DNA of 64,000 nt from Schmidtea polychroa (taxonomy: Eukaryota), in NCBI GenBank assembly GCA_044892525.1, contig CM097887.1, forward strand, positions 27,900,001-27,964,000, given 5' to 3'. Positions 27,408 to 53,397 of this stretch are shown in pieces. Under the pieces are notes generated by a model. It saw only the letters and a program-made list of their open reading frames with translations. It was not told where the DNA came from and did not search any database. The position numbers were made by a program, and so were the translations under genes. Within the stretch, counting starts at the first letter, position 1, and the number at the start of each line of letters is the position of its first letter.

Positions 27408-28370
27408 TGTTGATTATTACCTCAACATATCAAATACTGTTGCTTCATTAAAAAAGCTTTCACTTTCAAGTGACAAAGTTAAGTTAAATTGAAACCACAA
27501 AAATAAAGCACTTGCTATGAAAGGCCACTTTATTTTCTTTTTACAAAATATTTAATTAAAATTGTGGCTATTAATATCTAAACCACAATAATGATTTCGT
27601 AATTGAAACACTTCAGTTGTAAAGGAGAATAAATTAGGTCAACAGCTACAACCACGCAATACTTCATCTGAAAGTTTTTGTAAAATACATACTCCTAATA
27701 AATATTATTCTGTTTGTTAACGTGAAATGTCTAATAGGTTATATTTTAAATTTACCGCTAAGCTTACACTTGAAAAATATAATAAACTAAAGTTTGAGAT
27801 CAAAGCTTTTAAATATGACTACAAGGATAATGTCAGAAGAATTCCAATCAAAACCTTCATACAAACAAATTACTACAGAACCGGCCTCAATAAATATATA
27901 ATTAATATCTATGTAAAAATCTGATAGGATAGTGTGGGACACGTCATCAATTATCAATATATTTTTTAAAATAATATCACGACAAAATATAACAACGTTC
28001 ATACAACCAATTTCATCGACCGTCATTTTTGCATACAAGAAATACTAATTATCAAAGTTTGACAGCTACTTCAAATCTGTCGGTGTGGCATATGACTTTT
28101 GAAAATACTACATTGAGGCATGGTATAAAGAAAGTCGGAAACACTGCAATATGGTAATTTCAATTCTTAATAAATCCATCCATATTCCATATGATTTCAA
28201 AGATTATGAATTAACATTTAATTATATATCTGATTAAATAATGTTTTTATTTTTTATCTTTATATGTGAAAGACAACTGTATAAATTCTTTCATTTTTTA
28301 AAATATTTATTTTTTATCTTTTATTAAAAACAGTTGTATCCACTCTTTGATTTTTTATATTATATTCTTA

Positions 28371-29459
28371 TGTTAGGGATAGGCCTGGAGCCTTGTTGAC
28401 AAAATAAATAAAAATTACTAAAATTAGAAATAGTATAAATAAAAATAATAAAGTATTACCAAAAATAAAAGATGGGTTTTATTAATTACTATTAATAGAA
28501 TTAAGTTGTATATAGGAATATTTGATAATACTATTACTATATATAGTAATTATAAAATTGCTATTGATATAATAAATAATTAAAATATGATATAAATACT
28601 GGTTCAAAACGAGAACCAAGGACGAGAAAATTGACGGAAAAATTGACGATAAAAGTAACGATAAAACATTGAGACAATAATTTGGGGCGAGAAACATTAA
28701 GAAGATTTTGGACGATAGAATTAACAAGAAAAGAAAACGTATTTCGGAGAGAGACGATAAATTAGTTGATTGATTTAAAGAAACGTGATCAAAGAATCAC
28801 GGTGTTTATTTTAATTAAATTCAACACAAGTCTGAGTTGTTGAAATTGGATCGCACACGAAGAAATTCCGGCTATAATTTCCAACCAATATCAATTCTAC
28901 TATAAATTGATCAGCAAATTAGTTCAGAGGGAGAAGAAATAAGAAATAAGCTAAGAGCCAAGAATATTATCGTCACAGAATTGTAAAAAGGATTGGTCTA
29001 CAACAGTGTTTGGCAATTCAGGTAGATTATATTGTCAAGGGATAAACTAGTATCCTGTTGAATAGATAAAATTAAAGCGAATACAAAGTATAGATCTTTT
29101 ACTTTAGTGTTCCCTGGGAGCCTCAAAATCATTCCCTCTTGCTTGCCCAACTCTTTAGTCATATTGCGATCGTTGTGCTACACAGGAGCCATCGATTTCT
29201 TGCAGGCTGTGGTAAACAGTAAGGATTAATAAATCCGTTTTCTTGTATTCTTTGCACATATATTATAAATATCTGTTGTAAATTATTAAATACATTTTTA
29301 TAAAAGAGAAAGGCGTTTGTTGTTAATTCAGTGATTTAAAACTCATATACGCAACCACATTAAATAACTTATTTATATTTATTTTTATTTATTTATCTTA
29401 ATTAAGTTATTGGAGTCATTTGTGTTAAGATCTGTAGTCCCCGTTTTTCGATCTTAACA
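28371..29459 (+). repeat. 5' LTR
   Basis: TGTTAGGGAT...GATCTTAACA, with TGTTA/TAACA inverted ends; no difference from the 3' LTR seen by eye. Confidence 0.97.
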
Positions 29460-29462
29460 TTT

Positions 29463-29480
29463 TGGTGAGCCCGACGTGAT
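29463..29480 (+). promoter_or_regulatory. Primer-binding site for tRNA-Trp
   Basis: TGGTGAGCCCGACGTGAT lies 3 nt after the LTR. Its reverse complement ATCACGTCGGGCTCACCA matches the vertebrate tRNA-Trp 3' end as I recall it (ATCACGTCGGGGTCACCA) at 17 of 18 positions. Confidence 0.85.
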
Positions 29481-29596
29481 ACAATTTACGGGGGAATAAG
29501 AATTTTATTTATAAAAGGCAAACATCTTTTTGAATCATTGAGTTAAGAAATAGAAGGGTAATAAATTTAAGACCAGGTAATAGAAACCAGCAAATA

Positions 29597-32398
29597 ATGG
29601 CAGAGATAAATAATTTACAAAATTTAAACGAGAATAATTTACAAAATAATAATGTGCCAATAGCTCAACCACCAGTGGTAGATTTTATGAGATACCCAAC
29701 AATTCCGATTAAACCATTTAGTGGAAACCCAGAGGAGTTTCCAGAATTTATGTCCGAATATTTTCAGTTAGCCAGAGCATTAGGATTCCCGGAACCGGTA
29801 ATGATTTTGAGATTACCTTTATATTTAAAAGGGATGGCGCGGGAAATATATAACGATGTTATAATAGCCGAGCATCCAGTTGAATGGAATGTATTACGAT
29901 TAGCGTTACAAAACAGAATATTACCGGGGGATGCAACTAGAGTGCTGAGACAACAGTTTTATAATAGGCGACAAAATTCGGGTGAGCATGTTGGGGAATT
30001 TTCATATCAAATAATGATGTTGGCAGAGAGAGCATTTGGTAATAGGGCAGCCTGGAATGATGCAACTAGAGCATTAGTAAAAGATCAGTTTTGGTCAGGG
30101 TTATCGTCAGCAATGAGAAATGCACTCAGTTTACACATAGGAGATAATTTAGAGGAATTAACTCGCAAAGCGTGTTTAATTGAAAGTAGCATTGAGAAAT
30201 CAAATAATTTTGCTATTAGTAGCAACAAGTCAGACATTGAGTGTTTTAATTGTCATAAAAAGGGACATATGTCAAAAGATTGTAAAAGTAGGAATAATTC
30301 TCCAGGGGACAAATTATGTACCAAGTGTGGGAGAAATAATCATGTGGCATCAAACTGTAGAATTTCGGACCTAAATTGTGAGAAATGCAAGCGCAAGGGA
30401 CATGTAGCGTCAGTTTGTAAAGCTAGTTTTGGGGGGAATAATTCAAATAATAATAATAGTAGAAATAGAAGCCCCGATAGGAATTTTCGTGGTAATAATA
30501 ATAATAATTTTAATAATAATATTAAAAGGGATGAAGTAAATTCGGGGGGTAAAATTAAATGTCATAAGTGTGGAAAATTTGGTCATATTATGCGTTCTTG
30601 TCCACAAAATGAGTTATCTAATAACAATGGTAGTAGTAACAATGGAAATAATCGATCGAAGCAGACAACGTTTGCAGTGAATTCAGATCACAAATTAACG
30701 TATTTGCAGCAGCTTGAATTAGAAATTCAAGAAGAGAGAAACAGGTTAGCGAGGCTAACAACAAATGAAACTGATGGGTACGATGAAAATGAAGGTGTTT
30801 ATATGACGTCAGCCAAAAGGAGGCGAAATAAAAATAATTATGTAGAACTTGAAGTGTTGATGCTTCAAGAAAGTCCACAGGAGGACAACGAGGAAAAGAC
30901 TATGGTCATAGAACCAGAAGTCTGTGAGGGTTTACAGGTTTCACCCAGGAAAAATCTAGTGGCTGTGGCCATGGAGCCAGAAGCCAACAGAGAAATAGAA
31001 GGTTTACCGGTTTCACCAGTTAAAAATCGTAAGGCTTTGGACATGGATCCAGTAGCTAATGAAATTGTTCCAACAGGAGTTTTGGAAAAAAGATGGGCTT
31101 CGGTCAGTGAACCGGAAGTTCTTATAGCCACATCATCCATGCGAGGTGAGTGTGGTAGTGAACCAATAAAGGTTCGAGAAGCATCGAAAGAGGAAAGAAA
31201 TCCCATCGATGACTGTAGAAAAATATTATTACGCAAGAGCGTATGGCAAAGAGAAATGAGACAGAAATTAGAAAACATTCGTTTAAACCCCGTTAATGAG
31301 AATGAGGTTGACAAAGTAATGGATATCATATCAGAGTTAAATAGAGATAAGGAATATTATCCAGAATTGAGAGAAATTCTGAGAAATATTGGCCTAAATT
31401 GGAAACAAAGAGAGAATCTGGAAGATTCTACAATTTTTGTATCTTTCCCAAAGGGTTGTTTTCGTAGATATACAATTAATCCAAGCGAAAAGGTAGAAGC
31501 ATTGGCAAAGAGAGTTTCTGTGGTAAAACCTCAATTGAGATGCAAATTATATTTATTGGGAGAAAAATTATTAGAGGGAGAAACCCTGTTAGATTGTGGT
31601 ATACTACCAGGGAAAAATATGGTTATAAAAGCAAAGTTTCACAAGGAAACTGTTACTGTAGTGGACTTGGATAATGTCCTTACTATAAGCGAGATTGAAA
31701 TTGATCAATTAAATCAAATATCAGCCGTACCACATAGGTTGGGAATCGAGCTGATGAAAAACCCAAGAGATGGGGAAGCCATTAAGATGATAATGGATTG
31801 GATACTGGAGTTGCGAATCCCAGTAGATACTCTTAGAGAGATAATGCCATTGATGGTGCCTTTAGTAAAAGAGACATCACAATTTCAGACACAAGCAAAG
31901 ATGCTGTTGATTAAAAATGGACATGCTATCAGACATTTGGAAGGTAGACAAGGTCCAGTGATGTTAGATATCAGGATACCCAGGAGAGGACACCTGATAC
32001 AACAATTTTCGTGTTATCATAGGGTAAAGAAACTGAGAAAAAGGATATCAGAAATATTAAAAGAGTCATTCCTAATAATGATACATGGTTGTCAGGTGGA
32101 TGACGACGAATTTCTAGTAGATGTTGGATGTTTTCCCAATGAGGAAACAGTTGTATTAATATTACTGGTAGAGTTTCCAGAGGATCAATGGGCAACTTTG
32201 AGATTGCCAGATAATGCTGAAATGGAGGATGAAACAGTACATCCTGAGCAAAATCAAGTAGACGGGAATACTCATCAGGAACCCGTAACTACAGTAGACT
32301 TAGATGAAGAGATAGATAAGTATCTCAAGGAGCTTGATAACACTGAAGACGAGTTAATCGAAATATTTCCTACAGGGAAGATAATGAAGTACAATTAA
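29597..32398 (+). CDS. gag: Extended Gag, 933 aa: capsid-like region, four CCHC zinc knuckles, C-terminal extension with two ubiquitin-like domains
   Basis: Capsid-like KPFSG-PEEF...LPLYLKG-A; knuckles CFNCHKKGHMSKDC, CTKCGRNNHVASNC, CEKCKRKGHVASVC and CHKCGKFGHIMRSC; Ubl-like segments near 31430-31640 and 31955-32175. Confidence 0.9.
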   Translation: MAEINNLQNLNENNLQNNNVPIAQPPVVDFMRYPTIPIKPFSGNPEEFPEFMSEYFQLARALGFPEPVMILRLPLYLKGMAREIYNDVIIAEHPVEWNVLRLALQNRILPGDATRVLRQQFYNRRQNSGEHVGEFSYQIMMLAERAFGNRAAWNDATRALVKDQFWSGLSSAMRNALSLHIGDNLEELTRKACLIESSIEKSNNFAISSNKSDIECFNCHKKGHMSKDCKSRNNSPGDKLCTKCGRNNHVASNCRISDLNCEKCKRKGHVASVCKASFGGNNSNNNNSRNRSPDRNFRGNNNNNFNNNIKRDEVNSGGKIKCHKCGKFGHIMRSCPQNELSNNNGSSNNGNNRSKQTTFAVNSDHKLTYLQQLELEIQEERNRLARLTTNETDGYDENEGVYMTSAKRRRNKNNYVELEVLMLQESPQEDNEEKTMVIEPEVCEGLQVSPRKNLVAVAMEPEANREIEGLPVSPVKNRKALDMDPVANEIVPTGVLEKRWASVSEPEVLIATSSMRGECGSEPIKVREASKEERNPIDDCRKILLRKSVWQREMRQKLENIRLNPVNENEVDKVMDIISELNRDKEYYPELREILRNIGLNWKQRENLEDSTIFVSFPKGCFRRYTINPSEKVEALAKRVSVVKPQLRCKLYLLGEKLLEGETLLDCGILPGKNMVIKAKFHKETVTVVDLDNVLTISEIEIDQLNQISAVPHRLGIELMKNPRDGEAIKMIMDWILELRIPVDTLREIMPLMVPLVKETSQFQTQAKMLLIKNGHAIRHLEGRQGPVMLDIRIPRRGHLIQQFSCYHRVKKLRKRISEILKESFLIMIHGCQVDDDEFLVDVGCFPNEETVVLILLVEFPEDQWATLRLPDNAEMEDETVHPEQNQVDGNTHQEPVTTVDLDEEIDKYLKELDNTEDELIEIFPTGKIMKYN

Positions 32399-32460
32399 AT
32401 CAAGATGAAACAAACATCGGAGCTAGTACATCGCGACAAGTCGAGCCACCAAGAGAAAGA

Positions 32461-35145
32461 GTGAGCCCGAAGTTAGTCGAGAATAAAAAGAAAAGAGAGA
32501 GAAGGGGTAGACCGAGGAAAAGTCAAATGAACCCACCCCCAAGAGAACTTTTAAAACCAGTTACAATTCAAAATGTAACTAAGCAGGCTTTAGCAGGGAT
32601 AGCTAGCCAAATTGATAAAAGCGTTGGAGACGCTAGTGATAAAACGGAAACATGGAAAATACTAAGTCAAATCTTACGATTGATCAAGCCTGATTGGCAA
32701 ATTAAGAAAGATAAAAGTGTTAATGTTGACAAAATTGCAGAAAAAGTCAAGAAAGCTATGGAAAAGATTCCAGGAAGCACCACGGAACAGGAGATGTTCG
32801 AAATAGCAGGGCAATTCATAGATGAAGGCCTGACGAAAGGGAAAATGATAACGATTCTAGCCTTAATGTTTAAAAATGCATTGAGCATAATTAAAGATGA
32901 TTCGTCGAAAATTCCAGCAGCCATAGACAAGCTGACTGATATCATCGAAGTGAATTTCAGAACATGGATGACTGAACATAAGTTTTGGGATATAAAAGAA
33001 ACGAAAGGAAAATATGAATTAAATGAAGAATTGTTGACAGAAAATATTTCAAGTAGTCCACGGGGAACAGGTGGATTTACTAGTTGGATGATGATGTTGT
33101 TGGTAATGATGGGAATATTGCGACAGACAAATTCCCTAACGGCATATGATTGCAGTGAACCAATATTATCGCGAATCTACTCATTAGTAGACACAGTGGA
33201 ATGCAAGGAAGCATATCCAGATAAAGTTGCAAAAAGGGAAGACGTGGAATATCATGTTTATCAGCAAACAGAGTTTTACAGAACCAGAGTGAGGGAATGT
33301 CGAATACAGAGAGCGACGTTCGAATATTACTGTGGATCGAATAGTTATTCAGCATTTTTAGGAGCTAAACTCATTCCGATACCGTTAATCATCCCACCAG
33401 AGGATTGTGTAAATGCTTTTCGGTCAAAAACAGTTAAAATAGATCATGAGGTGACAATTACCGCAGAAGAAGGGAAAAAGTTGGGTATAACTATTACCCG
33501 GGGAGGACCGATAGCAGATGATGGTTCTTGTCATGGTAGAAAGAAAGTTAGAGGTTCTAATGTAGTAAACTATGTGGTAACAGTTGAGGACTACACAGTA
33601 GAGCTGATAGAGTACGAAGGAACTTTCGAAGTATCCACGGGAAAAATGATGTCTCATCCAGAATGCAACGTGAAATATGGTTATTGTAAAACCAGTTTAG
33701 CAGTATTAACGTACCAATCAATGAGAGATTTTTGTGATTTAGGATACCTGAAAAAGGTAGTATTTTCAAGGCTAGATGGGAAAAGCTTTACGTCTCAGGA
33801 TTCACAACAAAGTGGTTGGGGAGACAAGATAGCTCACAAAACGAAAAAGGAAGTGGTACCAGAGAAAAGCACAGCAGTAGTATTAGTCTCAAAGGATTCC
33901 ACAGATGCAATTCGTTTAGTCAGAAAGAAACAGACAACAAAATGTGGTGTACCAATATTTGAAACCAACTACAAGGGAATATACTTAGCATACAAGTATG
34001 TTCCAGCAGCAGAATCATTGCATCTATCAGATATTAAAATAGCCAAGTATATCAATAATAATATTGATTTCTTGTATCATGATCTGCAGAAACAATTATT
34101 AGATGTGTATCAGGAAGTGATCCTGAACGACTGTCGTTTGAATCGGGAAATAATACGAAATAGATTAGCAATATCTATAGCTAATCCGGATTTAATAATG
34201 CCAATGTTGACAGAGGAAGGAACATTTGGTAGAATTTTGCGTGAAGCAATTTATAGTTACCAATGTAAAGCAATAGAGGTAGAAATCACCAAATATGATC
34301 GATGTACATTGGAGCTACCTGTGAAATATAAAGGAAAATTGAGATTCCTGATGCCAGTATCACACCAGTTATTAAAGGAGGATACCTCACCTTTAACTGC
34401 AATTTGCAATCCAGCAATGTCACCATTATACAAAATAAACAATATTTGGATTTCATTGCCAGACAGAAAGCCGCCTTCAAAACCAGTTGAAGTGCTTCAA
34501 GCTACAAAGTTAGAAACTAAAATGGAGTTTCAACCATTAAACGAAATGTCAAAAGGCGGAGTATATACTCCGGAAGATATAGAAGAAGCTCGGAGAGCAA
34601 TTGTGTTTCCCCAAATCAGAGATCGGGGAGTGACAGAGATAATAACAAGAATCTATCAATCATATGATGGAAAACCGGACTATAATCTATTATTTGGACC
34701 AGAACATTACAAAGAAGCTGCATCAAATGTAATACGGAAAATCTGGGGTAGATTTACAAGCTTTGGCATTTTTGTAGCAGGATGTTCAGGTATATATGCA
34801 ATAGTGATGATATTGAAAATAATTATATCGCAATTATTTTCCACCTATAGTATCTTCAAGATCGGGGGATGGTCTTGGAAGTTGCTGTTAGGAATGTGTC
34901 CAGTTTGTGCAGATTTTGCAGTATTTCATCATCATAATAAAGAGATTAAGAGAATGAAGAGGCAAACTATAAAGAAACATGAGTTAATAATGTATGAACC
35001 TAGTCATCGAGACGATGACAATTCTGACGAGGGAGGTAACCTAGAGGGCTATGAGACCTCAGACAACACCTCAATAAAACCAGACAACAAAAAACCGAAA
35101 TTTCAAAATTTTGAAAATAGTACTTTACAAACAGTACCCTGTTAA
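32461..35145 (+). CDS. env: Envelope polyprotein: N-terminal Bcl-2-like domain, internal signal peptide, chuvirus/gB-like fusion glycoprotein, TM anchor (frame open from 32347; first ATG 32527)
   Basis: Hydrophobic WMMMLLVMMGILRQTNS then LTAYDC; cysteine pattern YYCG-S, GSC-G, C-G-C, CG-PI-ETN, YQC-I-V, C-LELPV-Y, GGVYTPE, WG-FT-FG; TM near 34760-34840. Confidence 0.85.
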   Translation: MSPKLVENKKKRERRGRPRKSQMNPPPRELLKPVTIQNVTKQALAGIASQIDKSVGDASDKTETWKILSQILRLIKPDWQIKKDKSVNVDKIAEKVKKAMEKIPGSTTEQEMFEIAGQFIDEGLTKGKMITILALMFKNALSIIKDDSSKIPAAIDKLTDIIEVNFRTWMTEHKFWDIKETKGKYELNEELLTENISSSPRGTGGFTSWMMMLLVMMGILRQTNSLTAYDCSEPILSRIYSLVDTVECKEAYPDKVAKREDVEYHVYQQTEFYRTRVRECRIQRATFEYYCGSNSYSAFLGAKLIPIPLIIPPEDCVNAFRSKTVKIDHEVTITAEEGKKLGITITRGGPIADDGSCHGRKKVRGSNVVNYVVTVEDYTVELIEYEGTFEVSTGKMMSHPECNVKYGYCKTSLAVLTYQSMRDFCDLGYLKKVVFSRLDGKSFTSQDSQQSGWGDKIAHKTKKEVVPEKSTAVVLVSKDSTDAIRLVRKKQTTKCGVPIFETNYKGIYLAYKYVPAAESLHLSDIKIAKYINNNIDFLYHDLQKQLLDVYQEVILNDCRLNREIIRNRLAISIANPDLIMPMLTEEGTFGRILREAIYSYQCKAIEVEITKYDRCTLELPVKYKGKLRFLMPVSHQLLKEDTSPLTAICNPAMSPLYKINNIWISLPDRKPPSKPVEVLQATKLETKMEFQPLNEMSKGGVYTPEDIEEARRAIVFPQIRDRGVTEIITRIYQSYDGKPDYNLLFGPEHYKEAASNVIRKIWGRFTSFGIFVAGCSGIYAIVMILKIIISQLFSTYSIFKIGGWSWKLLLGMCPVCADFAVFHHHNKEIKRMKRQTIKKHELIMYEPSHRDDDNSDEGGNLEGYETSDNTSIKPDNKKPKFQNFENSTLQTVPC

Positions 35146-36268
35146 AGCAAAAAGGAGGAAAAGGCAGGAGTGGCCTGTAAATTATTTGTCACCATACGAG
35201 GGTAGAAAAAAGATAATACCAGAACGAGTCGAAGAGGAAATGTTAAAGAGGTTCGAGTTCAGAACAAATACAGATATATTACCATCTACCTCATACCCAA
35301 CGTATAAAATGAAGTTCGAGACAATGCCACCCTTGGGTACATCAGTATTAGAGATGGTACCAAAATATCCATTCAGCACGTTGGAACGGCTAAAGGAAGA
35401 GTATAAAGATGAAATAAAATCAGAAAATGACAAGGATAGTGATGATCAACAAAAGTTCAGAGACAATATTCGAGGAATCTCAACAATATTAATGGTCAAT
35501 ATGGGTAAAAAGACTCATAAACCTACGATTAAATTAAAAGTTAACAGGCATACGGTACATGCCATTATTGATTCAGGATCAGATTTGACTTTGATTGAAG
35601 CAAATTTATTAAACGAAAAAGAATTACAAGCAATAGTGCCGACATTAACTGTTGCATCAGGAGCAAATGGACAACCTATCAATGTTATCGGAACATTAGA
35701 TTGTGAATTAAGGTTGTGTGATCAAAAATTTAGACACGATATCAAAGTCACTAGACAATGTATGGCAGAACGTATCGTGGGAATAGATATATTGAAAAAG
35801 TTAAAAGATATTGTATTCGATTGTGCAACAGGCGAATTAGTAAAAATGACGGGTAGAAAACGGGAAACCTACAGTGTGGATGTAGTGTTTTTGGGTAGAA
35901 CGGTGAAAATACCACCGAGGACCGAAACAGTTTGTTTTGTAGCAACACACCAAGAGGTGGAAGGAGATGTTATTTTCAAACCAAGTGAGCAGTTCGTAAA
36001 TAGGTATAAAACACCTATGGTGCAAAACTTGGCAACAGTACGGGGAGGAAGAATCCCGATTAGATTAACGAATCTAGCAAGCAAATCATTGAGATTATAC
36101 CCAGAGACTAGAGTGGGTAAAGTGATACAACTATCTAACATGCAGAAAGAGTCTGAATCGATATTATCAGTAGAAGAGGATGAACGAGATCCTGATATCG
36201 AATATTACGACGCACCGAGCTGCGATAGTAAAACCTTATCTAGAAAGGAAAACATCAGAGTTAACTAA
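35111..36268 (+). CDS. pro: Aspartic protease region of Pol (frame open from 35078; first ATG 35240), ending in an in-frame TAA
   Basis: VHAIIDSGSDLTLI active site and IVGIDIL motif; same frame as the RT ORF, separated by a single TAA (36266-68). Confidence 0.9.
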   Translation: MKIVLYKQYPVKAKRRKRQEWPVNYLSPYEGRKKIIPERVEEEMLKRFEFRTNTDILPSTSYPTYKMKFETMPPLGTSVLEMVPKYPFSTLERLKEEYKDEIKSENDKDSDDQQKFRDNIRGISTILMVNMGKKTHKPTIKLKVNRHTVHAIIDSGSDLTLIEANLLNEKELQAIVPTLTVASGANGQPINVIGTLDCELRLCDQKFRHDIKVTRQCMAERIVGIDILKKLKDIVFDCATGELVKMTGRKRETYSVDVVFLGRTVKIPPRTETVCFVATHQEVEGDVIFKPSEQFVNRYKTPMVQNLATVRGGRIPIRLTNLASKSLRLYPETRVGKVIQLSNMQKESESILSVEEDERDPDIEYYDAPSCDSKTLSRKENIRVN

Positions 36269-39200
36269 TTGTTACGTAAATATGACCAAATTTTCGCAAA
36301 ACACGAGTATGACTTAGGGCAAGTTAATATTTTAGAGCATGAAATTAAATTAACAGAAAATAAACCGATAAAAATACGCCCGTACAGAATACCTCAAAGT
36401 ATACAAGGGTCCGTTGATAAACAAATTAAATTAATGCAAAAATACAATATAATCAGACCCAGTAAATCTCCATATTCCTCACCTTTGGTGGTTGTAGCTA
36501 AAAGAGACGGCTCAGTTAGATTATGCAATGACTATAGGAAATTAAATGAACAAACAGTTAGTGATAATCACCCGCTACCTTTGCTAGATTACATTTATGA
36601 TAAAATGAAAAATTCAAAGTTGTTTACTGTGATGGATGCACAGAAAGGCTTTTACCAAATAAAGATGAGCGAAGACTCAATTCCTATGACAGGATTTTCT
36701 ACAAGTAGTGATCATTTCGAATATTTAGTAATGCCGTTTGGATTAAAAGGAGCCCCTCCAACTTTCCAGAGGGCAATGAATATCATGTTGATGGATGCAC
36801 ATCACGCAATGGTATATATAGACAACATTATCATCTTCTCGGAAGACTTAGATAAACATTTGGATCATCTGGAGGACATTTTCAAAAGAATAATTATGGC
36901 AAACCTGAAAGTAAAGCCAAGCAAATGCAAATGGGCAGAATCGGAAGTGATTTACGTAGGGCATGTAATATCACACGATTGCGTAAGACCAGATCCGGCT
37001 AACACGGATAAAGTAAAGAATTTCCCACAACCAGTGAATGTGAAACAAATCAAAGGATTTTTAGGGTTAACGGGATATTACCGGAAATTTATACGAAACT
37101 TTTCAGCAATTGCTTTTCCTCTAACTACCTTAGAAAAGAAAGGTATAAAATTTTTATGGGGAGAGGATCAGCAACAGGCATTTGACAAGTTAAAAGATGC
37201 ACTATGCAAACCACCAATTTTACGATTTCCAGATTTTAGAAGACAATTCATGGTGATGACCGATGCATGTACAAGAGGTATAGGTGCAGTTTTGGGGCAG
37301 AAAGATGAAATTGGTGATGAGTACGCAGTAGCATATGCAAGTCGTGGATTGAAGCCACACGAGAAAAGTTATGCTGTAATAGAATTGGAAGCATTAGCAT
37401 TAGTATTTGCAGTGGAAAAATTTAGTCATTACCTATGGGGCAGAAAGGTAATTTTCTATACAGATCATAGACCCTTGCAATGGCTGTTAAAACATAGAGA
37501 CGAAGCATCAAAATTAGTAAGATGGGCATTGAGATTACAGCCATATAATATCGAAATTGTATATCGTAAAGGTAAAGCTAATGGTAATGCAGATGCATTA
37601 TCACGAATGGAGCAAGAGCCTGAGTTAGAAGATATAAAGGAAGGAAGATTAGAAGGAACTATCTTCATGCTAACAAGAGAGGCTAACACTTTGAGCGATT
37701 TAGTAGAAGCACAGAAAAATGATGACGAAATCAATATGATCAGACAAGCCATAGAAGCAAAGGCCATACCAAATGAATTTCAGAAATATTGGGAGAAACA
37801 TAAAGATAAATTCATATTGGAAGAAGGTCTAATCAAATATGTGGAATCAAGAGATAATGTAATTTTAGTGCCAAAGAAATACAGAGAATCACTATTATTA
37901 CAATACCACGATGGAGCACTGGGAGGACATCTCTCAGCTAGACATACATTGTCAAGATTGAAAATGAAATACTTTTGGCCGAATATGAAAGATGATGTTA
38001 AAAAGTGGTGTCAATCGTGTAAGATATGTATAACCAGAAGGAACACAGGTAGGAAACCACATGTTCCATTAAAACCAATGCCAGTACCGTCCTCGCCATT
38101 GGAGATGACCGCTATGGATGTACTAGGGCCGTTTAAAGAATCAAAGATGGGAAATAAATTTATCATAGTATTTTGTGACTACTTAACGAAGTGGCCCGAA
38201 GCATTTCCAATTCCGAATCATAAGGCAGACACAATTGCCAGAATTTTTGTAGAACAAATTGTATTTAGATATGGTGTTCCGACAAAATTGCTTACAGACA
38301 GAGGAAAGGATTGCATGAGTAATTTGTTAAAAAGTATTAATGATTATTTTGGTATTTTAAAATTAAATACCTCACCATACCACTCACAGACGGATGGATT
38401 GGTAGAGAGGTTCAATGGAACCTTGGCAAACATGTTATCATCATACGTAAACTCAGGTCAGACGGACTGGGATGTACACATACCATCATGTTTGTTTGCG
38501 TATAGAAATGCTGTTCATTCAGTAACAGGAGAAACACCTTTCTATCTGATGTATTTAAGGCATAGCAAGATGCCAGCGGATCTTATATTTTATCCAAAAG
38601 CATCACAGAACTGTGATGAGGGAAACTACTTATTCGAGATGAGAGAAAGAATGCAAGAAGCCTGGAAGAAAGCAGGTTTGAACATTCGTTATAACCAAGA
38701 AACAATGAAGGAATATCATGATCGTAAAGCGAAAGATCATGGGTTTTTGGTAGGAGATTATGTCATGTTAGAAGGACATTACAACAAAAAAGGTTTATCT
38801 CCTAAATTAATGAGAAATTACAAAGGGCCGTTTCAAATTTTGAAAGTCACAGAAACCAATTTAGTCTTACAGTTAGTGGCAAACAGAAAAGCAGAACCGA
38901 TAATGGTTCATGCAAACAGATGTAAAAAGATAGCCCCACCAGAAAAGGAGAAACCAAAATCAGAAATTGATGAATTCGAAATAGATAAGAAATCGAAAAA
39001 GAAAACGTTAGAATCATATAAAAGTATCCTAAAGGGACAACCAGAACGATACCCTTTACGATCTCGGCAAATCCCGAAAACAGTTACATTTTTAGCAGTG
39101 ATTAGCTGTGTTATGATGATGGGACAGGCATTCGAGGTATTCACACCTAAAGCCAGTCAACATCCAGATATCGAATATCAACGAACAGATAGAGCATTCA

Positions 39201-40057
39201 GATTTCATTTAACGAATATACAATGGCATAGATATGATCTATATTTGGTAGCTGCTGAAAGAGGGATATCTTTTCACTTGAATACATGGGATCGAGTGAA
39301 AGTAATAGAGGGACTTATGCCGAATACAAGTTATCTATTAGAAATCAAGACATTCTTTGCAGACCCAAACGTTTTTGCAGATGGAGGAGATTGTGTAGAT
39401 AAAGCAGCATGGATTTTGAAGACTGCAAAATTTACCAAAAAAGTAGAGATTTCATATCTCGGGCAGATAGTTAGATTTACTCATCCACGGTGGAACAGAA
39501 ATGATACATCTTCCACTCACGATTGGAGGACGAATAATAAAATTGCGTTAATTGTCATATTAGAAGACGACCAGCGAGTCGAGAGATTAGTGCTCAACCA
39601 TGCGTATCTAAGTAGAAGATGGAAAATCAAACCAGATACCGTGACAAAGGCGAACATTTCGTATTTGGAATTTACGGAGAGAACCGGTTGGTATACAATA
39701 TATCAAGAAATAATAAATCTAATACCTCCCACAAGAGGAGAACTAACTAGCAAAGAAGGAAAGGCTAGATTAGTGAATATTCCTGGTTGTAAAGGAATAA
39801 ATGCTTTAGATTGGTTTAGTATTAGAAAGGTAGCGAGTGTAAAACAGCCCCGCATAACTAAAAAAATTAATAATTGTAGTTGTCAAAATACGTTAAAGGG
39901 GGCAGCGAGGGTGAAAACGCCAACATGGCTAATGTTAATTATGATAGGGGGAGTAATTTGCATGATTTTAATTTTGCTCTTAACCACCCTATGGATGTTT
40001 AGATTAAATATACGAGATATGCGTTATTGGGAAAATATTTACGAAACCGAGGTATAG
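36269..40057 (+). CDS. pol: RT - RNase H - integrase, with C-terminal signal-like/FN3-like/TM extension; RT active site reads YIDN
   Basis: LCNDYRKLN, MPFGLKGAP, YIDN; TDACTRGIGAVL, ELEALA, YTDHRPL, NADALSR; HHCC finger, MDVLGP, LTDRG, VERFN; TM WLMLIMIGGVICMILILLLTTLWMF. Confidence 0.95.
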   Translation: MLRKYDQIFAKHEYDLGQVNILEHEIKLTENKPIKIRPYRIPQSIQGSVDKQIKLMQKYNIIRPSKSPYSSPLVVVAKRDGSVRLCNDYRKLNEQTVSDNHPLPLLDYIYDKMKNSKLFTVMDAQKGFYQIKMSEDSIPMTGFSTSSDHFEYLVMPFGLKGAPPTFQRAMNIMLMDAHHAMVYIDNIIIFSEDLDKHLDHLEDIFKRIIMANLKVKPSKCKWAESEVIYVGHVISHDCVRPDPANTDKVKNFPQPVNVKQIKGFLGLTGYYRKFIRNFSAIAFPLTTLEKKGIKFLWGEDQQQAFDKLKDALCKPPILRFPDFRRQFMVMTDACTRGIGAVLGQKDEIGDEYAVAYASRGLKPHEKSYAVIELEALALVFAVEKFSHYLWGRKVIFYTDHRPLQWLLKHRDEASKLVRWALRLQPYNIEIVYRKGKANGNADALSRMEQEPELEDIKEGRLEGTIFMLTREANTLSDLVEAQKNDDEINMIRQAIEAKAIPNEFQKYWEKHKDKFILEEGLIKYVESRDNVILVPKKYRESLLLQYHDGALGGHLSARHTLSRLKMKYFWPNMKDDVKKWCQSCKICITRRNTGRKPHVPLKPMPVPSSPLEMTAMDVLGPFKESKMGNKFIIVFCDYLTKWPEAFPIPNHKADTIARIFVEQIVFRYGVPTKLLTDRGKDCMSNLLKSINDYFGILKLNTSPYHSQTDGLVERFNGTLANMLSSYVNSGQTDWDVHIPSCLFAYRNAVHSVTGETPFYLMYLRHSKMPADLIFYPKASQNCDEGNYLFEMRERMQEAWKKAGLNIRYNQETMKEYHDRKAKDHGFLVGDYVMLEGHYNKKGLSPKLMRNYKGPFQILKVTETNLVLQLVANRKAEPIMVHANRCKKIAPPEKEKPKSEIDEFEIDKKSKKKTLESYKSILKGQPERYPLRSRQIPKTVTFLAVISCVMMMGQAFEVFTPKASQHPDIEYQRTDRAFRFHLTNIQWHRYDLYLVAAERGISFHLNTWDRVKVIEGLMPNTSYLLEIKTFFADPNVFADGGDCVDKAAWILKTAKFTKKVEISYLGQIVRFTHPRWNRNDTSSTHDWRTNNKIALIVILEDDQRVERLVLNHAYLSRRWKIKPDTVTKANISYLEFTERTGWYTIYQEIINLIPPTRGELTSKEGKARLVNIPGCKGINALDWFSIRKVASVKQPRITKKINNCSCQNTLKGAARVKTPTWLMLIMIGGVICMILILLLTTLWMFRLNIRDMRYWENIYETEV

Positions 40058-40263
40058 GGGGAAAGTCTCACCATATACTAGGAAGTGTAAATATATATAG
40101 TTATTTATTTTATATATATATGTTATTTATATTAGTATGTAGACTAATGTGGGCTCAAATGAGCATTGGTAAAATCAGACATCAGCGTATGTCGACTTTG
40201 GTTACCCTGCGAGGGTCTATCACGAAAGTGATAAAAGCTGTTAATTATTTTATTTTTAGAAAA

Positions 40264-41055
40264 ATGAATTATAACAGAGAATCAAAGCCGCCAGTCAAAG
40301 CAAATCGACGACACCCATTGGCAACGTACAATTCCCAAACTCGAGTTGAAACTGAAGTGTATAGCACCTATAAAGAAGAGTATGTATATCGGTTCATCGG
40401 AACCACGGTCGCAGCAAAAATGAATCACCTCACCTCAAACTATTGGTATTATCCCAGGAGAGTGGATATTCCAAACGACTTCAAATTTCCAGGAGGGCCT
40501 CGAAGGCAAATGATGGTAACGGTTATAAATAACCAAGGTAGATTAAAATTGGCGGAACTATGTAGAGAGTATGGTTCATGTCCGAAAATAGAAAACTTGT
40601 GGATTCATGCGATCAATAGGCCATTCACGGTGTTTATGGCGGGATTAGAGTTACCTGTTGAATTAGAAAAACAGTGTACTCTGGAGATATACCACGCTGA
40701 TGGACGAGAACGGAATATTATGATCCAGGCAGCGGCGGTGGACACCATAATCGCAATAGAAATCTTAGACTTCAGGAAGCCATACTCTATAGTTAGCAAA
40801 AACGAGCCAACTTGGATTTATAATGTAAATGAAGACGATATACGGCAGTGTAAATCATTTGTGAGGAAGAAGTTATCCAAAGCCGAGGAGAACGAGGCTA
40901 CAATTTTCATATCGGCAGGTTTTGCCAAATCCCGAATCGAATTGAAGGAGACAATTATCCAAATCGCAATTATGGATATGAGAGGAAATAATTTATTGAG
41001 TGCGGTAGTGACTCCCAGAGATCCAGTAAAACATTACCAAAACGCACCAATATAA
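40264..41055 (+). CDS. 3' accessory ORF (263 aa from ATG 40264); C-terminus resembles the start of a DEDDh exonuclease fold
   Basis: Splice acceptor ttattttatttttag ends at 40259, 5 nt before the ATG; IIQIAIMDMRGNNLLSAVVTPRDPVKHY. Confidence 0.6.
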   Translation: MNYNRESKPPVKANRRHPLATYNSQTRVETEVYSTYKEEYVYRFIGTTVAAKMNHLTSNYWYYPRRVDIPNDFKFPGGPRRQMMVTVINNQGRLKLAELCREYGSCPKIENLWIHAINRPFTVFMAGLELPVELEKQCTLEIYHADGRERNIMIQAAAVDTIIAIEILDFRKPYSIVSKNEPTWIYNVNEDDIRQCKSFVRKKLSKAEENEATIFISAGFAKSRIELKETIIQIAIMDMRGNNLLSAVVTPRDPVKHYQNAPI

Positions 41056-41060
41056 GTTAA

Positions 41061-42272
41061 AAGAACCCGACATTAGAGGAAATTTTGCTTAAGGATCTGA
41101 TCTCGGTAGCCAATCTACCAGTGCAGCGAATATTGGGTATTCGTGACCTTTCGGCAAATAAACTATTGGAAACCAGAGGAGTCCCAAAGATTCATGGTCA
41201 TTACAGATTGGGATTCCTGACAAAAACTTTCCTGCGTACGTTTCCCGGAGAACCAAGAAATTTAGTGGTCACCAATGAGGCACTGGCAATACGTGCTGTT
41301 TATTTACATATCAGGAACGAATGGTTAGACCATATCACGATTCCCCAGGAGGAATTCATTTCAGCAACTACAGCAGCGATAGTTGAACAGGAAATGACGC
41401 AGAAGAGGAGATTACCTGAGCAACCATCTACATCTGAGCAACCCCAACCTAAGAGGAAATCACCTGTGGATCTACCACCGCCTCCAGCTATATCTATTGG
41501 AGAAGAAGATGAATATGAAACATGTGCTAGTGAGATAGAGACAGCAAAATCACCTAAACAATCATCGGGAGCTGCCTATCAGCCAAAGAATAAATCGGAT
41601 AATGCGGTCAGAAAAGAAAATCCAGAAGGGGGCAAGGTGAAAAAGATGTTAAAGAAAATGTTACCCATAAAAAGAGACAAGTCGAAGTTAAAGTTGAAGA
41701 AAGTTGTTAAACCGTCGGAAGGAACGACAAAAGAGACACCCAGCAGTTCGGAAGATAGGACTATTAAACCTCAAAAGATATTCAGCGAACCAGATGATGA
41801 CATTATGGAAGTTGCCTTTCAACCTCCGGTTAAGGAGATGCAGGAAGCAATAAAGGTTAAATCTGAACCTGTGGTAAGGCAGAAATTGTTAAAGATTGCC
41901 AAGGAGAATATCATCAAGAAACCAGTTTCGGTTGATGTGGACGGTTTCGAACCAATGTGGTACAAACGTCCGGATAGTAAATGGAAACCCAGAGCGAAGG
42001 AGTATGACTGCCAACCAGTCACGAGAATGGCAGTCAATAATAATCAAAAATATGATGTTTATGACGTAGACGGGATCCCTTACGTGGTGTCTACAGTCAT
42101 ATTAACGAGTGCTCTGGATGGTAAGCCTTTGGCAGTGAGTTTTGAGCCAGAAGTCTTACAGAAGAGGAAAAAGAAGTTGCTGCAGCAATACGTCGTTGCC
42201 AATAGCTACAGCACGAAGGAGTTGCACCTTTACAAAGTTCCCGACCCAGATCCCGATGATCTGGATATCTAA
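41061..42272 (+). CDS. 3' accessory ORF (about 400 aa): exonuclease-like N-terminus, charged disordered middle, unknown C-terminal domain; probably once continuous with the preceding ORF
   Basis: Frame open from 41061 (KNPTLEEI...ILGIRDLS...RLGFLTKTFL...TNEALAIRAVY); 1.2-kb ORF inside the element. Confidence 0.6.
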   Translation, partial: KNPTLEEILLKDLISVANLPVQRILGIRDLSANKLLETRGVPKIHGHYRLGFLTKTFLRTFPGEPRNLVVTNEALAIRAVYLHIRNEWLDHITIPQEEFISATTAAIVEQEMTQKRRLPEQPSTSEQPQPKRKSPVDLPPPPAISIGEEDEYETCASEIETAKSPKQSSGAAYQPKNKSDNAVRKENPEGGKVKKMLKKMLPIKRDKSKLKLKKVVKPSEGTTKETPSSSEDRTIKPQKIFSEPDDDIMEVAFQPPVKEMQEAIKVKSEPVVRQKLLKIAKENIIKKPVSVDVDGFEPMWYKRPDSKWKPRAKEYDCQPVTRMAVNNNQKYDVYDVDGIPYVVSTVILTSALDGKPLAVSFEPEVLQKRKKKLLQQYVVANSYSTKELHLYKVPDPDPDDLDI

Positions 42273-42500
42273 TCCAAGAGCGTTGCCACCCAACATGTGT
42301 CGTCGAATTCAGAATGTGTATAAAAGGACTTAACTATTATTTGATTTGTGCTATCCAGTGTTTTGACATTCATTATTTGTGATCTAAAACATTAATTTTG
42401 TGTTTTTTCTTATTTGATTAATTTTTATGTTTTTATTGTAATACTGTTTACCAAAAGCCTTCTTTAGTCTTGCTTTTATCTTGTTTTCGAGACGAAAATC

Positions 42501-42517
42501 TTTTAGGGGGTAAGACT
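42501..42517 (+). promoter_or_regulatory. Polypurine tract
   Basis: ttttAGGGGGTAAGAct immediately before the 3' LTR TG. Confidence 0.8.
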
Positions 42518-43606
42518 TGTTAGGGATAGGCCTGGAGCCTTGTTGACAAAATAAATAAAAATTACTAAAATTAGAAATAGTATAAATAAAAATAATAAAG
42601 TATTACCAAAAATAAAAGATGGGTTTTATTAATTACTATTAATAGAATTAAGTTGTATATAGGAATATTTGATAATACTATTACTATATATAGTAATTAT
42701 AAAATTGCTATTGATATAATAAATAATTAAAATATGATATAAATACTGGTTCAAAACGAGAACCAAGGACGAGAAAATTGACGGAAAAATTGACGATAAA
42801 AGTAACGATAAAACATTGAGACAATAATTTGGGGCGAGAAACATTAAGAAGATTTTGGACGATAGAATTAACAAGAAAAGAAAACGTATTTCGGAGAGAG
42901 ACGATAAATTAGTTGATTGATTTAAAGAAACGTGATCAAAGAATCACGGTGTTTATTTTAATTAAATTCAACACAAGTCTGAGTTGTTGAAATTGGATCG
43001 CACACGAAGAAATTCCGGCTATAATTTCCAACCAATATCAATTCTACTATAAATTGATCAGCAAATTAGTTCAGAGGGAGAAGAAATAAGAAATAAGCTA
43101 AGAGCCAAGAATATTATCGTCACAGAATTGTAAAAAGGATTGGTCTACAACAGTGTTTGGCAATTCAGGTAGATTATATTGTCAAGGGATAAACTAGTAT
43201 CCTGTTGAATAGATAAAATTAAAGCGAATACAAAGTATAGATCTTTTACTTTAGTGTTCCCTGGGAGCCTCAAAATCATTCCCTCTTGCTTGCCCAACTC
43301 TTTAGTCATATTGCGATCGTTGTGCTACACAGGAGCCATCGATTTCTTGCAGGCTGTGGTAAACAGTAAGGATTAATAAATCCGTTTTCTTGTATTCTTT
43401 GCACATATATTATAAATATCTGTTGTAAATTATTAAATACATTTTTATAAAAGAGAAAGGCGTTTGTTGTTAATTCAGTGATTTAAAACTCATATACGCA
43501 ACCACATTAAATAACTTATTTATATTTATTTTTATTTATTTATCTTAATTAAGTTATTGGAGTCATTTGTGTTAAGATCTGTAGTCCCCGTTTTTCGATC
43601 TTAACA
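42518..43606 (+). repeat. 3' LTR
   Basis: Same length and apparently the same sequence as 28371-29459; followed by the TSD CTTA. Confidence 0.97.
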
Positions 43607-44004
43607 CTTATATAAATAATTTTATCGTCATACATTAAAACTATTAAAACACATTGGCGAATAATTTAATAAATTTTATTTTCTTTCTCTCAACCACCTT
43701 ATCGGTGCATTGGGAGACAATTCTTCTCGAAAATGAAAATATTGCCTCTATTCAACATGTGTATAAAAATTTTGCAAAAACTGCAATGTTAAATGAAGGT
43801 TAAACATGAAATTTTTGAGGTCCACAGAATCTCAAACCGATGATTTTTTATATATAACTAAGTCGACACTGGTTAATAAATTTTATTGATATTACAAATA
43901 CAAAATGGTTACCTGATAAAAATATTAAAGTTTCTTTTGTTTATTTTCGTATAATATTGTTGGGTATTTTGTACAAGCCGGTATCACTGTCTGACTCTTT
44001 GGTG

Positions 44005-46725: not shown

Positions 46726-47678
46726 CCTTGGTGACTTTTTATTAAGCAAATAGAACAACACAACACAATAATATTTGAAATTATCACAATTATACTTTTC
46801 TTTTATTACACACTTTAATGAAACAATCTGAGTTTGCACAACTTTAAATAACTCTTTTTACTCTACAAACTTTTCAATATCAACCTGAATCTTGCACAGG
46901 AATTCATCTTCCAACGAGAGATGTTTTTTTCTGGTATGCTAGATTCAAAACGATTTGGTTAGCACTAAGTTAAATCGACTTTTACTCCCATTCACTGTAA
47001 TATCACTGTTCTTTCTTTGAACAACTGGCAATTCTGTCTACTTACCAGTGTCTTTTATACCCGTCTCGTAATTTTATTATCTTCTTATCAAATTACTTTT
47101 GATATTTTTCCCCGGGCTTTCTCTTTTGACTAAATTGGTTTAGGAAATTTATTCATATTTTGAGTCTACCCCAATTTAATAATTCGTCGACTAATTCGAT
47201 TGCCTCAACCTAATTTGATTGACCACTTGGTTCCTCTCACACTGTTAGGGTTTCCCATTAGTTAGGGTTTTCTATTAGCTAATTAAATTTTTAATTAAAT
47301 TTTAGTTTTTTGTAATTATTTCCTTCTAGTAACCAAAGTAACTGTTTAAGGAAAAGTAAATTGCTTTTTCTTGTGAAAACTTGCGGATTCACAGGCGATC
47401 GACTTTAAATCATCATGCTATCGACCTTATGGGTACCATTGGTGTATAAACTTTAATTTTATGTCTATCTTGTCAATAATACTCAGAATTTTGCTATATG
47501 CTAATTTAATTTATATTATTGAAACTCTAAATTAATGTCATTCAGGCTCTTATGAATTGCAATTACTGCAATTTATTTATTTTTACCAATCTCTATTATT
47601 CACTGATAGGAAGTATATAATAATTTTAAATAATCAACTAATATAGATAACTATTAATAAGTTTATAAATAATTATCA

Positions 47679-48374
47679 ATGAATTCTTTAACCGAACTTC
47701 ACGATTCCACGAGAATTGATGCTGAAACTAATCTAATAGAACAATTCCCATTGAAAATAATCAAACTTCACAAAATTTTGTCATCCGACAATTATAATCT
47801 CAAAAGGATATTGCAAAATGATTCAGATGGATTATTATCCAGAATCAACAGTGAAAACTGTGGAGATGATGAGGAAATGAAAATCCGAAAACTATCGATT
47901 AAAACAACTGAAGAATCCCAAGATCATTTTAAATTAAACAAAATTATCACAAACTTCGCAGACGAAATCAAACCAATTATTCTCGAATGCATAGACGATG
48001 TACAAATGCTCCAGATGTGGATCCAATTGAATGTTCCGAAAATCGAAGATGGCAATAATTTCGGGGTTTCAATTCAGGAGAAGGTGCTCGAGAAATTGAG
48101 TGAGGTGGAATCCGAGCTGTTGGTACGTTTGGACTTTTTTAGTGAATACCATTATTATAGGGCTAAATTGCTGGCAAAGTTCTATAAATATCCCAACGTA
48201 GAGGACTTCAAAGTGAGTGCTATAGAATACGATCAAAGCATAATAATACAAATTCGGGGAATTGTTGAAGATGTAAGAAATTACTATGCAATTTTGCATG
48301 ACATTTTCTTGAAAAATTTAGTGAAATTAAAAAAGCCTCGCAATGACAATGGCGTTTCATATGCAATTTCTTAA
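47679..48374 (+). CDS. PSME3: Proteasome activator PA28/REG (PSME3-like), intronless, 231 aa
   Basis: WIQLNVPKIEDGNNFGVSIQEK activation-loop signature; KFYKYPNVEDF; RNYYAILHDIFLKNLVKLKKPR. Confidence 0.92.
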   Translation: MNSLTELHDSTRIDAETNLIEQFPLKIIKLHKILSSDNYNLKRILQNDSDGLLSRINSENCGDDEEMKIRKLSIKTTEESQDHFKLNKIITNFADEIKPIILECIDDVQMLQMWIQLNVPKIEDGNNFGVSIQEKVLEKLSEVESELLVRLDFFSEYHYYRAKLLAKFYKYPNVEDFKVSAIEYDQSIIIQIRGIVEDVRNYYAILHDIFLKNLVKLKKPRNDNGVSYAIS

Positions 48375-52071: not shown

Positions 52072-53392
52072 ATGGGGTTTTTTTTAAATATTTTTAGAGT
52101 AATAAATTTTATTTCGTATTTAATTAAAATGATATATTTCATTATTTAAATCTAATTATAATATAATGAAAATTTAGAAAAAATCCAAATCTACTGAAGA
52201 GCAATTGGAATTCATTAAGAAAGTTGATATTTAATTATTAGTTATAATTTTGAGCTTGTATTAGTCAATCTTAGAAATTGAAGAAAAACGGAGGCTGAAT
52301 TTAAGCAATGAAAAGCATTTAATTGGTAGTTTGATGCTTTACTCGTTTATGCTATATTTCACATGTACTGCATTCATTTTTATTTATGTTAAACCTTCCA
52401 AAACTAATTACTGGCCTCTGTACTTTGCCCCATTAGTAGCATTTCCATTTCTGTTAGTCTACAATTGACAAATTTTATAATTTAATTTTGTCAGGATTTT
52501 CTACATTAAAAAGATTATTCAATGGTTTTATATTCGACGATTGAACTATGTCGGTAAGTTTCAATATCTTAATTCCTTTAACGTTATTTAATTTAAAAAT
52601 TTGATTTTTAGATAAAAAATTATTGGATTTAAAAAAGAATCTTAAAGATTTGGTAAAATATTATAGAAATTAAAGAAATCTAAATCAACTAATTGAAATA
52701 GCTAACAAACGTCATTGAAAAAGAAACTTATAAAAAAGCAAATGAAATATTGAATAAGTTTGATCCGAATTTCGAATTTCGTAATGAATATGAGAATTTC
52801 CCCGATAAGAAATTACGCAGCTGCTCTGATCACAATTCTGATAGCGAATTGGACAGGAAAAATCTCAATAATAAAACTAAATCGATTTCTGAACCGAATA
52901 AAACCGTTTCCGTCAACGACCTACGTAAACATGAATTCACAAAGAAGCCAAGTTGATTATTATCATTCTAATACCGATTGATTGACCTCGATTCCAGTAT
53001 CGATCATCAGCTCGGATATCAAATTGATTCGGCCTTTACTCAATCAGAATCGGTCGAGTTTCGATAAGATTATCGATTTCATCGTTGGGGACGGATTCGA
53101 CCGTCGGTTCGCGCTCATTTGCAAGCATTGCTCTAGTCACAACGGAATGGCAATGGCTGATGAATTCCCGTTCATTGGTGGACATTGATTATTGCCCTGC
53201 TTTGATATTATACCCTGTTACTATATAGGTTACAAGTGCGCCTATTGTGCCGGGTTCAACGCGCCTAGGAAAACCAAGCCAGACCCACCGACAATTTACG
53301 ACACTGATCAAGAGGCTGAAAGAAATTTGACAGGGAACTATTTCAAATTGCCCAATCAAATTATTAAATCAGGTGAAATTTTCATTTGCTAA
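52072..53392 (+). CDS. LNPK: ER junction protein Lunapark, about 8 exons; last exon uncertain
   Basis: Exons 52072-98, 52178-222, 52265-452, 52495-553, 52612-652, 52702-951, 52998-53177 and 53229-392 (GT-AG introns 42-79 nt): N-terminal MG, two TM segments, EKETYKKANEILNKFDP, IVGDGFDRRFALICKHCSSHNGMA...YKCAYCAGFNAPRK zinc ribbon. Confidence 0.9.
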
Positions 53393-53397
53393 TTTTG

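Follow-up and report, generated by a model that had tools for sequence, protein, structure and literature searches.

A probable membrane-fusion envelope module between Gag and protease in the polyprotein of a compact Burro-like Gypsy retroelement

The G region, an open reading frame described at 33085-35145 of the window (the whole stretch of 64,000 nucleotides analysed here), is very probably the env module that sits between Gag and protease in the polyprotein of a Burro-like Gypsy element, and likely a membrane-fusion protein. It belongs to a complete LTR element spanning positions 28371-43606 (15,236 bp, ~15.2 kb; Table 1), a compact, young and multi-copy Burro-like Gypsy retroelement. Searching its six ORFs against Pfam revealed, in this order, four zinc knuckles, a Monjiviricetes_fusion domain, aspartyl protease, RT, RNase H and integrase. 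The Ty3/Gypsy assignment follows from the TG...CA LTRs, the target-site duplication, the primer-binding site (matched to a tRNA-Trp gene in this genome), the purine tract and the PR-RT-RH-IN order; the RT tree covers 11 related elements.

Table 1. Features of the element and of its flanks, in window coordinates
Feature	Position	Strand	Evidence or remark
Target-site duplication, 4 bp, left copy	28367..28370	.	Right copy 43607-43610; flanks read
5' LTR, 1,089 bp, TG...CA	28371..29459	+	0 mismatches vs 3' LTR
Primer-binding site, tRNA-Trp	29463..29480	+	18/18 complementary to tRNA-Trp gene 3' end (plus CCA)
Gag: capsid-like part and four CCHC zinc knuckles	29597..30607	+	zf-CCHC E 3.7e-13, 4 stretches
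Putative ubiquitin-like module(s), likely two	31430..32173	+	Pfam ubiquitin E 0.068 (first module), below cut-off
Private frameshift, gag side	32375..32376	+	Common to 0/29 other copies
Putative Bcl-2-like domain	32746..32988	+	Pfam Bcl-2 E 0.0053, weak, below cut-off
G, internal signal peptide	33088..33141	+	Hydrophobic segment from ATG at 33088
G, ectodomain, chuvirus/gB-type, 14 cysteines	33142..34749	+	Profile and alignment evidence
G, transmembrane helix	about 34762..34845	+	Hydropathy
Second private frameshift and resulting stop	35128..35145	+	Common to 0/29 other copies
Aspartyl protease, DSG at 35570	35516..35806	+	Pfam RVP E 6.5e-8
Domain at Burro's dUTPase-like place	35840..36172	+	32-34% identity to Burro-like copies there
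Private in-frame stop	36266..36268	+	Absent in 28/29 other copies, 1 unreadable
RT, RNase H, integrase, Ty3/Gypsy order	36497..38383	+	Pfam RVT_1, RT_RNaseH, Integrase_H2C2, rve
Second type I membrane protein, in frame after integrase	39071..40057	+	Hydropathy, predicted fold
Second membrane protein, signal-like segment	39071-39130	+	Hydropathy
Second membrane protein, two predicted FN3 domains	about 39161-39730	+	AlphaFold, Foldseek, VIA
Second membrane protein, TM	39923-40003	+	Hydropathy
Accessory ORF2	40003..42272	+	775 aa stop-to-stop in sister copies
3' LTR	42518..43606	+	Short purine tract just upstream

The identity of G is carried by its homology to viral fusion proteins. Pfam family PF24664 (Monjiviricetes_fusion) matches it with an E value of 8.7e-80 (269 bits; the cut-off is 27), and alignment with the glycoprotein of Tacheng tick virus 4 gives 25% identity over 625 columns (E 2e-47). 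At the sequence level, this resemblance to the chuvirus-type fusion family far exceeds chance, as an earlier sequence-only reading of this locus had proposed. The features on which that reading relied, namely a signal peptide, an AYDC start (33142-33153), a cysteine series and a C-terminal TM, were also recovered. A hydrophobic stretch precedes AYDC, AFDC or GYDC in all 13 relatives displayed, and each of the 14 ectodomain cysteines is retained in 58-59 of the 59 stand-alone homologues and in 16-18 of the 18 polyprotein-type rows. Downstream of the TM helix, hydropathy marks a weaker hydrophobic stretch (34879-34923), which, if membrane-crossing, would leave Pol on the wrong side.

The homology to chuvirus/gB-type fusion proteins that this reading proposed is supported, with weak sequence matches to gB itself. 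Searching the PDB with the single G sequence gave 0 matches, and with a profile built from 95 homologues (matches to E 10), 33 of 35 matches were herpesvirus gB, all of them weak and falling in one 75-residue stretch (best E 0.015, range 0.015-0.49). These profile matches fit a class III protein, but weakly. The single-sequence AlphaFold model of G reached a pLDDT of 33, too low to be of use; supplement 2 of PMC13524379 marks an AlphaFold model for the related Smed_errantivirus_3. A word-index homology search with G, which covers only proteins of near length and is uninformative on absence, gave no matches.

In sister copies, G is an internal module of one 3,516-aa Gag-G-Pol frame. A genome search yielded 65 scored G matches from 3,047 candidates. 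Ten of the 65, with G 98-99% identical, sit in open frames of 3,516 aa and one in a frame of 3,513 aa; these sister copies read through from Gag to the end of Pol in a single frame. Long frames also occur in family B (G 64% identical; 3,366 or 3,368 aa in 2/11 rows) and in family C (G about 41% identical; 3,334 aa in 8/68 rows of the longer profile stretch). The protease shares the frame of G in 27 of 29 copies of the window family (family A) and in 27 of 30 family-C copies, and it follows G in the same chain in 11 of the 15 database relatives scanned. The placement of G after gag, with its four zinc knuckles, and upstream of the DSG protease was therefore read correctly from the one copy, and the order is a trait of the family. 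The intact ORF of about 670 aa that had been reported is in part an appearance: 686 codons are indeed open (33085-35142), but the open frame holding them starts at 32347, with the Bcl-2-like domain inside it ahead of the signal, and the end at 35145 is the product of a private frameshift near 35,128. Because the frameshifts are private to the window copy, the stand-alone look of its G ORF is an accident of that one copy. A homopolymer assembly error behind these breaks is not favoured, since runs at these sites reach only 3-4 letters.

The frameshifts that sever G from gag and pol might suggest that the G ORF entered as a nested insertion of its own, the outcome that the sequence-only reading had itself named as fatal to its proposal, or that it is a passenger in decay. 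They are confined to the window copy, and their absence from the 29 other copies excludes a nested insertion. In addition, three families, as well as relatives from other datasets, keep G in frame, and its ectodomain has a dN/dS of 0.04 between A and A2 (0.08 between A and B, where dS is near saturation), so that a passenger origin is scarcely credible and G is under purifying selection. An endogenous viral element of Chuviridae was likewise rejected: G falls in the retroelement clade, and its neighbours are gag and pol.

The same reading had taken the gag-env-pol order to indicate an independent capture from a Jingchuvirales-like virus. A recent capture of this kind by the window family would be in keeping with the full-length similarity of G to a named chuvirus G (25%) and with its membership of the Monjiviricetes fusion family, and the non-monophyly by POL of GAG-ENV-POL elements described in PMC13524379 leaves room for several old origins. 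It is nevertheless very improbable, and we consider it largely refuted. Among the matches listed from a representative-protein search (1,231 homologues), the nearest G sequences are those of long retroelement polyproteins, at 26-40% identity, against about 21-28% for stand-alone G. We built a G tree of 77 rows, of which 5 come from this genome and 72 were drawn from the 150 listed matches (13 polyprotein-type and 59 stand-alone; fragments and the remaining listed matches were excluded). The 18 polyprotein-type rows all fall into a single deep clade (SH-like support 0.993) that includes the Burro-like element of this genome, and both named chuvirus G proteins fall outside it; being midpoint-rooted, the tree is silent on the donor and on the direction of transfer (virus to element or the reverse). 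Comparing G and RT trees, a check that had been suggested for this locus, revealed that, for the 11 elements having both parts, the G tree reproduces 5 of 5 well-supported RT branches, the family C row in the RT tree being partial.

Burro-like elements of this genome, which we located by walking upstream from 2 of 150 BIR matches, carry G at the identical position: their coding order (Gag, MATH, G at 33% identity, protease, RT, integrase) follows that of the window element. In one of them, G is 33%, RT 43% and integrase 45% identical to the window element; this element, which has a MATH domain and an ankyrin-like region (by eye), was found upstream of a BIR ORF. Because G groups with polyprotein-embedded G and matches the RT tree, its presence points to inheritance within an old lineage, and the trees suggest that the ancestor of that lineage, rather than the window family, likely acquired G in a single ancient event.

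The layout has a published counterpart. Section 7 of PMC6431247 (Arkhipova & Yushenova 2019) describes the planarian element Burro, a single ORF of which joins ubiquitin-like, BCL2-like, env, protease and dUTPase-like domains, presents it as the first case of an env placed in frame between gag and pol, reports matches to mononegavirus fusion proteins, and cites Grohme 2018 and Jurka 2007 for Burro / GYPSM1 elements. The window element shares with it the CCHC Gag, putative ubiquitin-like and Bcl-2-like parts, an env in frame before the protease, a domain at the dUTPase-like place, RT-RH-IN and a giant ORF. It differs in size, with 15.2 kb and 3,516 aa for the window family versus over 30 kb and 4,873 aa for Burro, and its six ORFs gave no Pfam matches to MATH, BIR or ankyrin; with 15,236 bp and without these three domains, it is a compact relative of Burro and not Burro proper. 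Whereas PMC6431247 ties the Burro env to gypsy Env, the present tests place G with chuvirus/gB-type proteins. A C-terminal membrane protein, which section 7 of that paper does not mention for Burro, is present in the window element.

Some of these parts are faint in the window copy itself. The ubiquitin-like and Bcl-2-like matches ahead of env stand in the place and order expected from Burro and recur in relatives, all below Pfam cut-offs. For the ubiquitin-like stretch, PDB polyubiquitin is matched at E 0.53, and family C reaches E 2.4e-4 in 2 stretches, still weak and below cut-off; the Bcl-2-like stretch, which recurs in family C and in P0005, has PDB matches to BOK and FPV039 (E 0.04-0.05). 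Engineered spike heptad repeats, the top PDB matches of this stretch, were dropped, as their scores summed repeats whose single stretches are non-significant. The Retrotrans_gag match is weak in the window copy (E 0.051), against E 6.4e-9 in the related family C. At 35840..36172 there is no Pfam match to dUTPase, and the name is borrowed from PMC6431247. Two other readings, TFIIS-like for the helices beside the ubiquitin-like modules and a dUTPase motif for residues upstream of the G signal, found no database support.

A broader group of such elements was described by Chary & Hayashi (eLife 2026; PMC13524379), who report GAG-ENV-POL elements with gB-type env in Nematoda, Bryozoa and Platyhelminthes, list six from Schmidtea mediterranea and argue for an ancient env-pol association. 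The S. mediterranea errantiviruses, found as regions of 14.5-18 kb and in several cases multi-copy, have the order and the gB-type env of the window element, which likewise has env between gag and pol and near-identical open copies, although the window copy itself is broken. Counted by eye, window G agrees with the displayed Smed_errantivirus_4 domain at 85 of 120 residues (about 71%), and family C is, also by eye, nearly identical to the displayed Smed_errantivirus_2 domain. As judged from these displayed domains, the window family is a sister of Smed_errantivirus_4, its nearest listed element, and is none of the six. The closeness of both matches suggests that the host is probably S. mediterranea or a near relative of it. 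No tRNA is given in the table for those six elements, whereas the window element has a full tRNA-Trp site. The family is thus a further member of the published group, with a layout that is genuine but not new; since the gag-env-pol order has been in print since 2019 (PMC6431247, and again in PMC13524379 in 2026), it adds little here, and the earlier view of it as an undescribed anomaly is not supported.

Relative to viral G proteins, the module is both recognizable and distinct. The Chuviridae G proteins of Tacheng tick virus 4 and Wufeng shrew chuvirus 2 have in common with window G the PF24664 match, 14 cysteines and a signal-ectodomain-TM layout, but they are separate viral genes rather than an internal module, are about 25% identical to it (one aligned, full-length), and lie outside the retroelement clade; window G also has fewer sequons. 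BEL/Pao and insect Gypsy elements with such an env normally carry it after pol. The env family is common to the window element, to mosquito BEL/Pao elements with chuvirus-like G (Dezordi 2020, via section 14 of PMC13524379) and to insect Gypsy elements with gB-type env, while the window element is Ty3/Gypsy and has its env in frame before pol.

The interest that remains lies largely at the other end of the polyprotein, where a second, rapidly diverging membrane protein is predicted to have two FN3 domains and ends in a PDZ-type tail. Sequence searches of Pfam and the PDB gave this protein no name (best PDB E 0.38), and the fold alone did; a word-index homology search, again restricted to near-length proteins and uninformative on absence, had no matches. 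Its AlphaFold model, from a 12-row alignment (pLDDT 75.8, pTM 0.66), has an all-beta ectodomain whose top PDB matches in Foldseek are tandem FN3 (best E 1.2e-6, with a TM-score by query of only 0.35). VIA comparison with tandem FN3 gave Z 9.3 (rmsd 4.2, 168 residues), and with a single domain Z 8.7 (rmsd 2.7, 81 residues), scores just above the range reached by common folds. The tail ends in a putative class I PDZ-type motif, present in 7 of 11 rows. A signal-plus-TM unit occurs at the frame end in 10 of the 11 rows examined, including a Burro-like element; BLAST links only the five compact families, so that homology of the unit is supported among those. Between subfamilies, the second membrane protein is 61% identical, versus 93% for G and 95% for integrase, and its dN/dS is 0.21 versus 0.04 for G. 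We therefore predict, from the modelled fold, a fast-evolving FN3 surface protein, and such fast change is as expected for a host-facing attachment protein.

A second, fibronectin-like membrane protein at the end of the polyprotein may be undescribed. A literature search for a retroelement second membrane protein of FN3 type found no description, and none is given in section 7 of PMC6431247 or in the main text of PMC13524379; the terms FN3, fibronectin, Bcl, ubiquitin, in-frame and polyprotein have 0 occurrences in the latter. Supplements, RepBase and paywalled papers may hold one.

Established signal-peptide and polyprotein biology suggests how such a chain could be laid out and cut. The polyprotein would thread the ER membrane in the manner of its flavivirus and alphavirus counterparts, with the Gag, ubiquitin-like and Bcl-2-like parts remaining in the cytosol. 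The internal signal would direct G into the lumen, where signal peptidase would free its N-terminus near AYDC, and the G TM helix would bring protease-RT-RNase H-integrase back to the cytosol as the tail of G; a second signal would then export the FN3 protein, followed by its TM helix and a short tail. Release of Gag and Pol would fall to the element's own protease. The three products, Gag, G and Pol, would arise 1:1:1, and Pol would enter budding particles via the tail of G instead of through a Gag-Pol frameshift. As a 1:1 Gag:Pol ratio is atypical, splicing or selective decay may exist. A class III G trimer would fuse particle and target membranes, and the element could move from cell to cell, for example into stem or germ cells.

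An alternative use of the same protein is that G is kept for work in the producing cell or at cell contacts, as a membrane anchor for Gag and Pol or as a cell-cell fusogen, and not for entry by free particles. The polyprotein does tether Gag and Pol to the membrane of G, N-glycan sequons are few or none, and the PDZ-type tail of the second membrane protein (7/11 rows) would suit cell junctions. However, the 14 of 14 viral-family cysteines and the strong constraint over the whole ectodomain exceed what an anchor needs, and fusion at contacts would still require G as the fusogen. We regard this alternative as unlikely, and retain G as a probable fusion protein of the env type.

More tentatively, and as a possibility on which we would not rely, the polyprotein could yield a two-protein entry machine, in which a conserved gB-like fusogen, encoded before Pol, is joined by a fast-evolving FN3 protein, encoded after it, for adhesion or receptor binding. 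The PDZ-type tail would direct assembly to cell junctions, and Pol would enter particles as the tail of the fusogen. By analogy, herpesviruses pair gB with gD and gH/gL, and G plus the FN3 protein would be the counterpart. The discussion of PMC13524379 points out that herpes gB requires gD, gH and gL and that entry of gB-only elements is unexplained, which is what makes the second membrane protein a novel case. If true, the element would be the first retroelement to assign attachment and fusion to different proteins, in a herpes-like division of labour, and the model would answer the question raised there of how gB-only elements enter cells. Being young and multi-copy in what is probably a laboratory flatworm, the window family offers a tractable case for asking whether non-insect gB-type envelopes drive membrane fusion and carry elements from cell to cell, and how a polyprotein with four membrane crossings is cut and packaged.

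Two further observations concern the glycans of G and the accessory ORF. The ectodomain of window G contains 0 N-glycosylation sequons, where about 2.2 are expected from composition, and 'glycoprotein' is for this reason a name by homology; the mean is 1.8 sequons in the 18 polyprotein-type rows versus 3.6 in the 59 stand-alone rows. Their absence in family A, and their low number in the clade, are unusual for a secreted viral protein and count against the main reading. ORF2, for which a Pfam search found no matching family, is broken in the window copy near 41,040-41,080, and its central part weakly resembles the ISG20L2 exonuclease (profile match 7yw5, E 0.17).

Synonymous divergence between two subfamilies of the element, represented by loci L031/L032 and L035/L036, was 0.13-0.24 in gag and RT and 0.7-1.5 in the Bcl-2-like, G, protease and integrase regions and in the FN3 protein encoded in frame after integrase. 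This divergence is patchy along the element, a pattern that suggests recombination among subfamilies.

Three copies of the element were spaced 14,218 nt apart at 100.87-100.91 Mb of contig G000:C2 (L006-L008), and are likely to form a tandem array with LTRs in common. Of the 123 matches to the FN3 protein, 61 consist of its C-terminal half and recur within 106.49-107.23 Mb of contig G000:C3, at a spacing of about 2,880 nt; these repeats are a satellite built from a piece of the element. On contig G000:C4, tRNA-Trp genes lie in a 284-nt tandem array, starting at 55.02 Mb (L090; six genes called there, 821 tRNA-Trp pattern matches genome-wide), and tRNA-Trp is the likely primer of the element.

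Several aspartyl-protease-like domains were found in the related polyproteins P0151, P0002, P0003 and P0011, with a maximum of up to seven such stretches in P0151 (4,844 aa). A G-Pol polyprotein of the element's lineage, P0006 (HBK71150.1), is assigned in the database to a Flavobacteriaceae MAG, and is likely animal DNA placed in a bacterial bin. The Burro-like element of the same genome, a relative whose G is 33% identical, carries downstream a TRAF-like ORF with zf-TRAF and MATH domains (L080:7353-8789). As for the accessory ORF2 of the window's element (window 40003-42272), its middle matched only the ISG20L2 exonuclease, a putative similarity at a weak E of 0.17.

Other features of the window
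Feature	Position	Strand	Details
DUF5738-matching 207-aa frame	12881-13504	-	E 4.6e-27
Proteasome activator PA28 gene, unbroken 233-aa frame	47673-48374	+	PF02252, E 6.4e-47
Very AT-rich tandem repeat region	about 53350-56800		periods 10/17/27/33 nt
219-aa frame, weak RING-finger match	62115-62774	-	E about 0.005

The 219-aa frame adjoins a stretch of N at 61731-61942, and within the tandem repeat region the GC content falls to 3% at 54001-55000.
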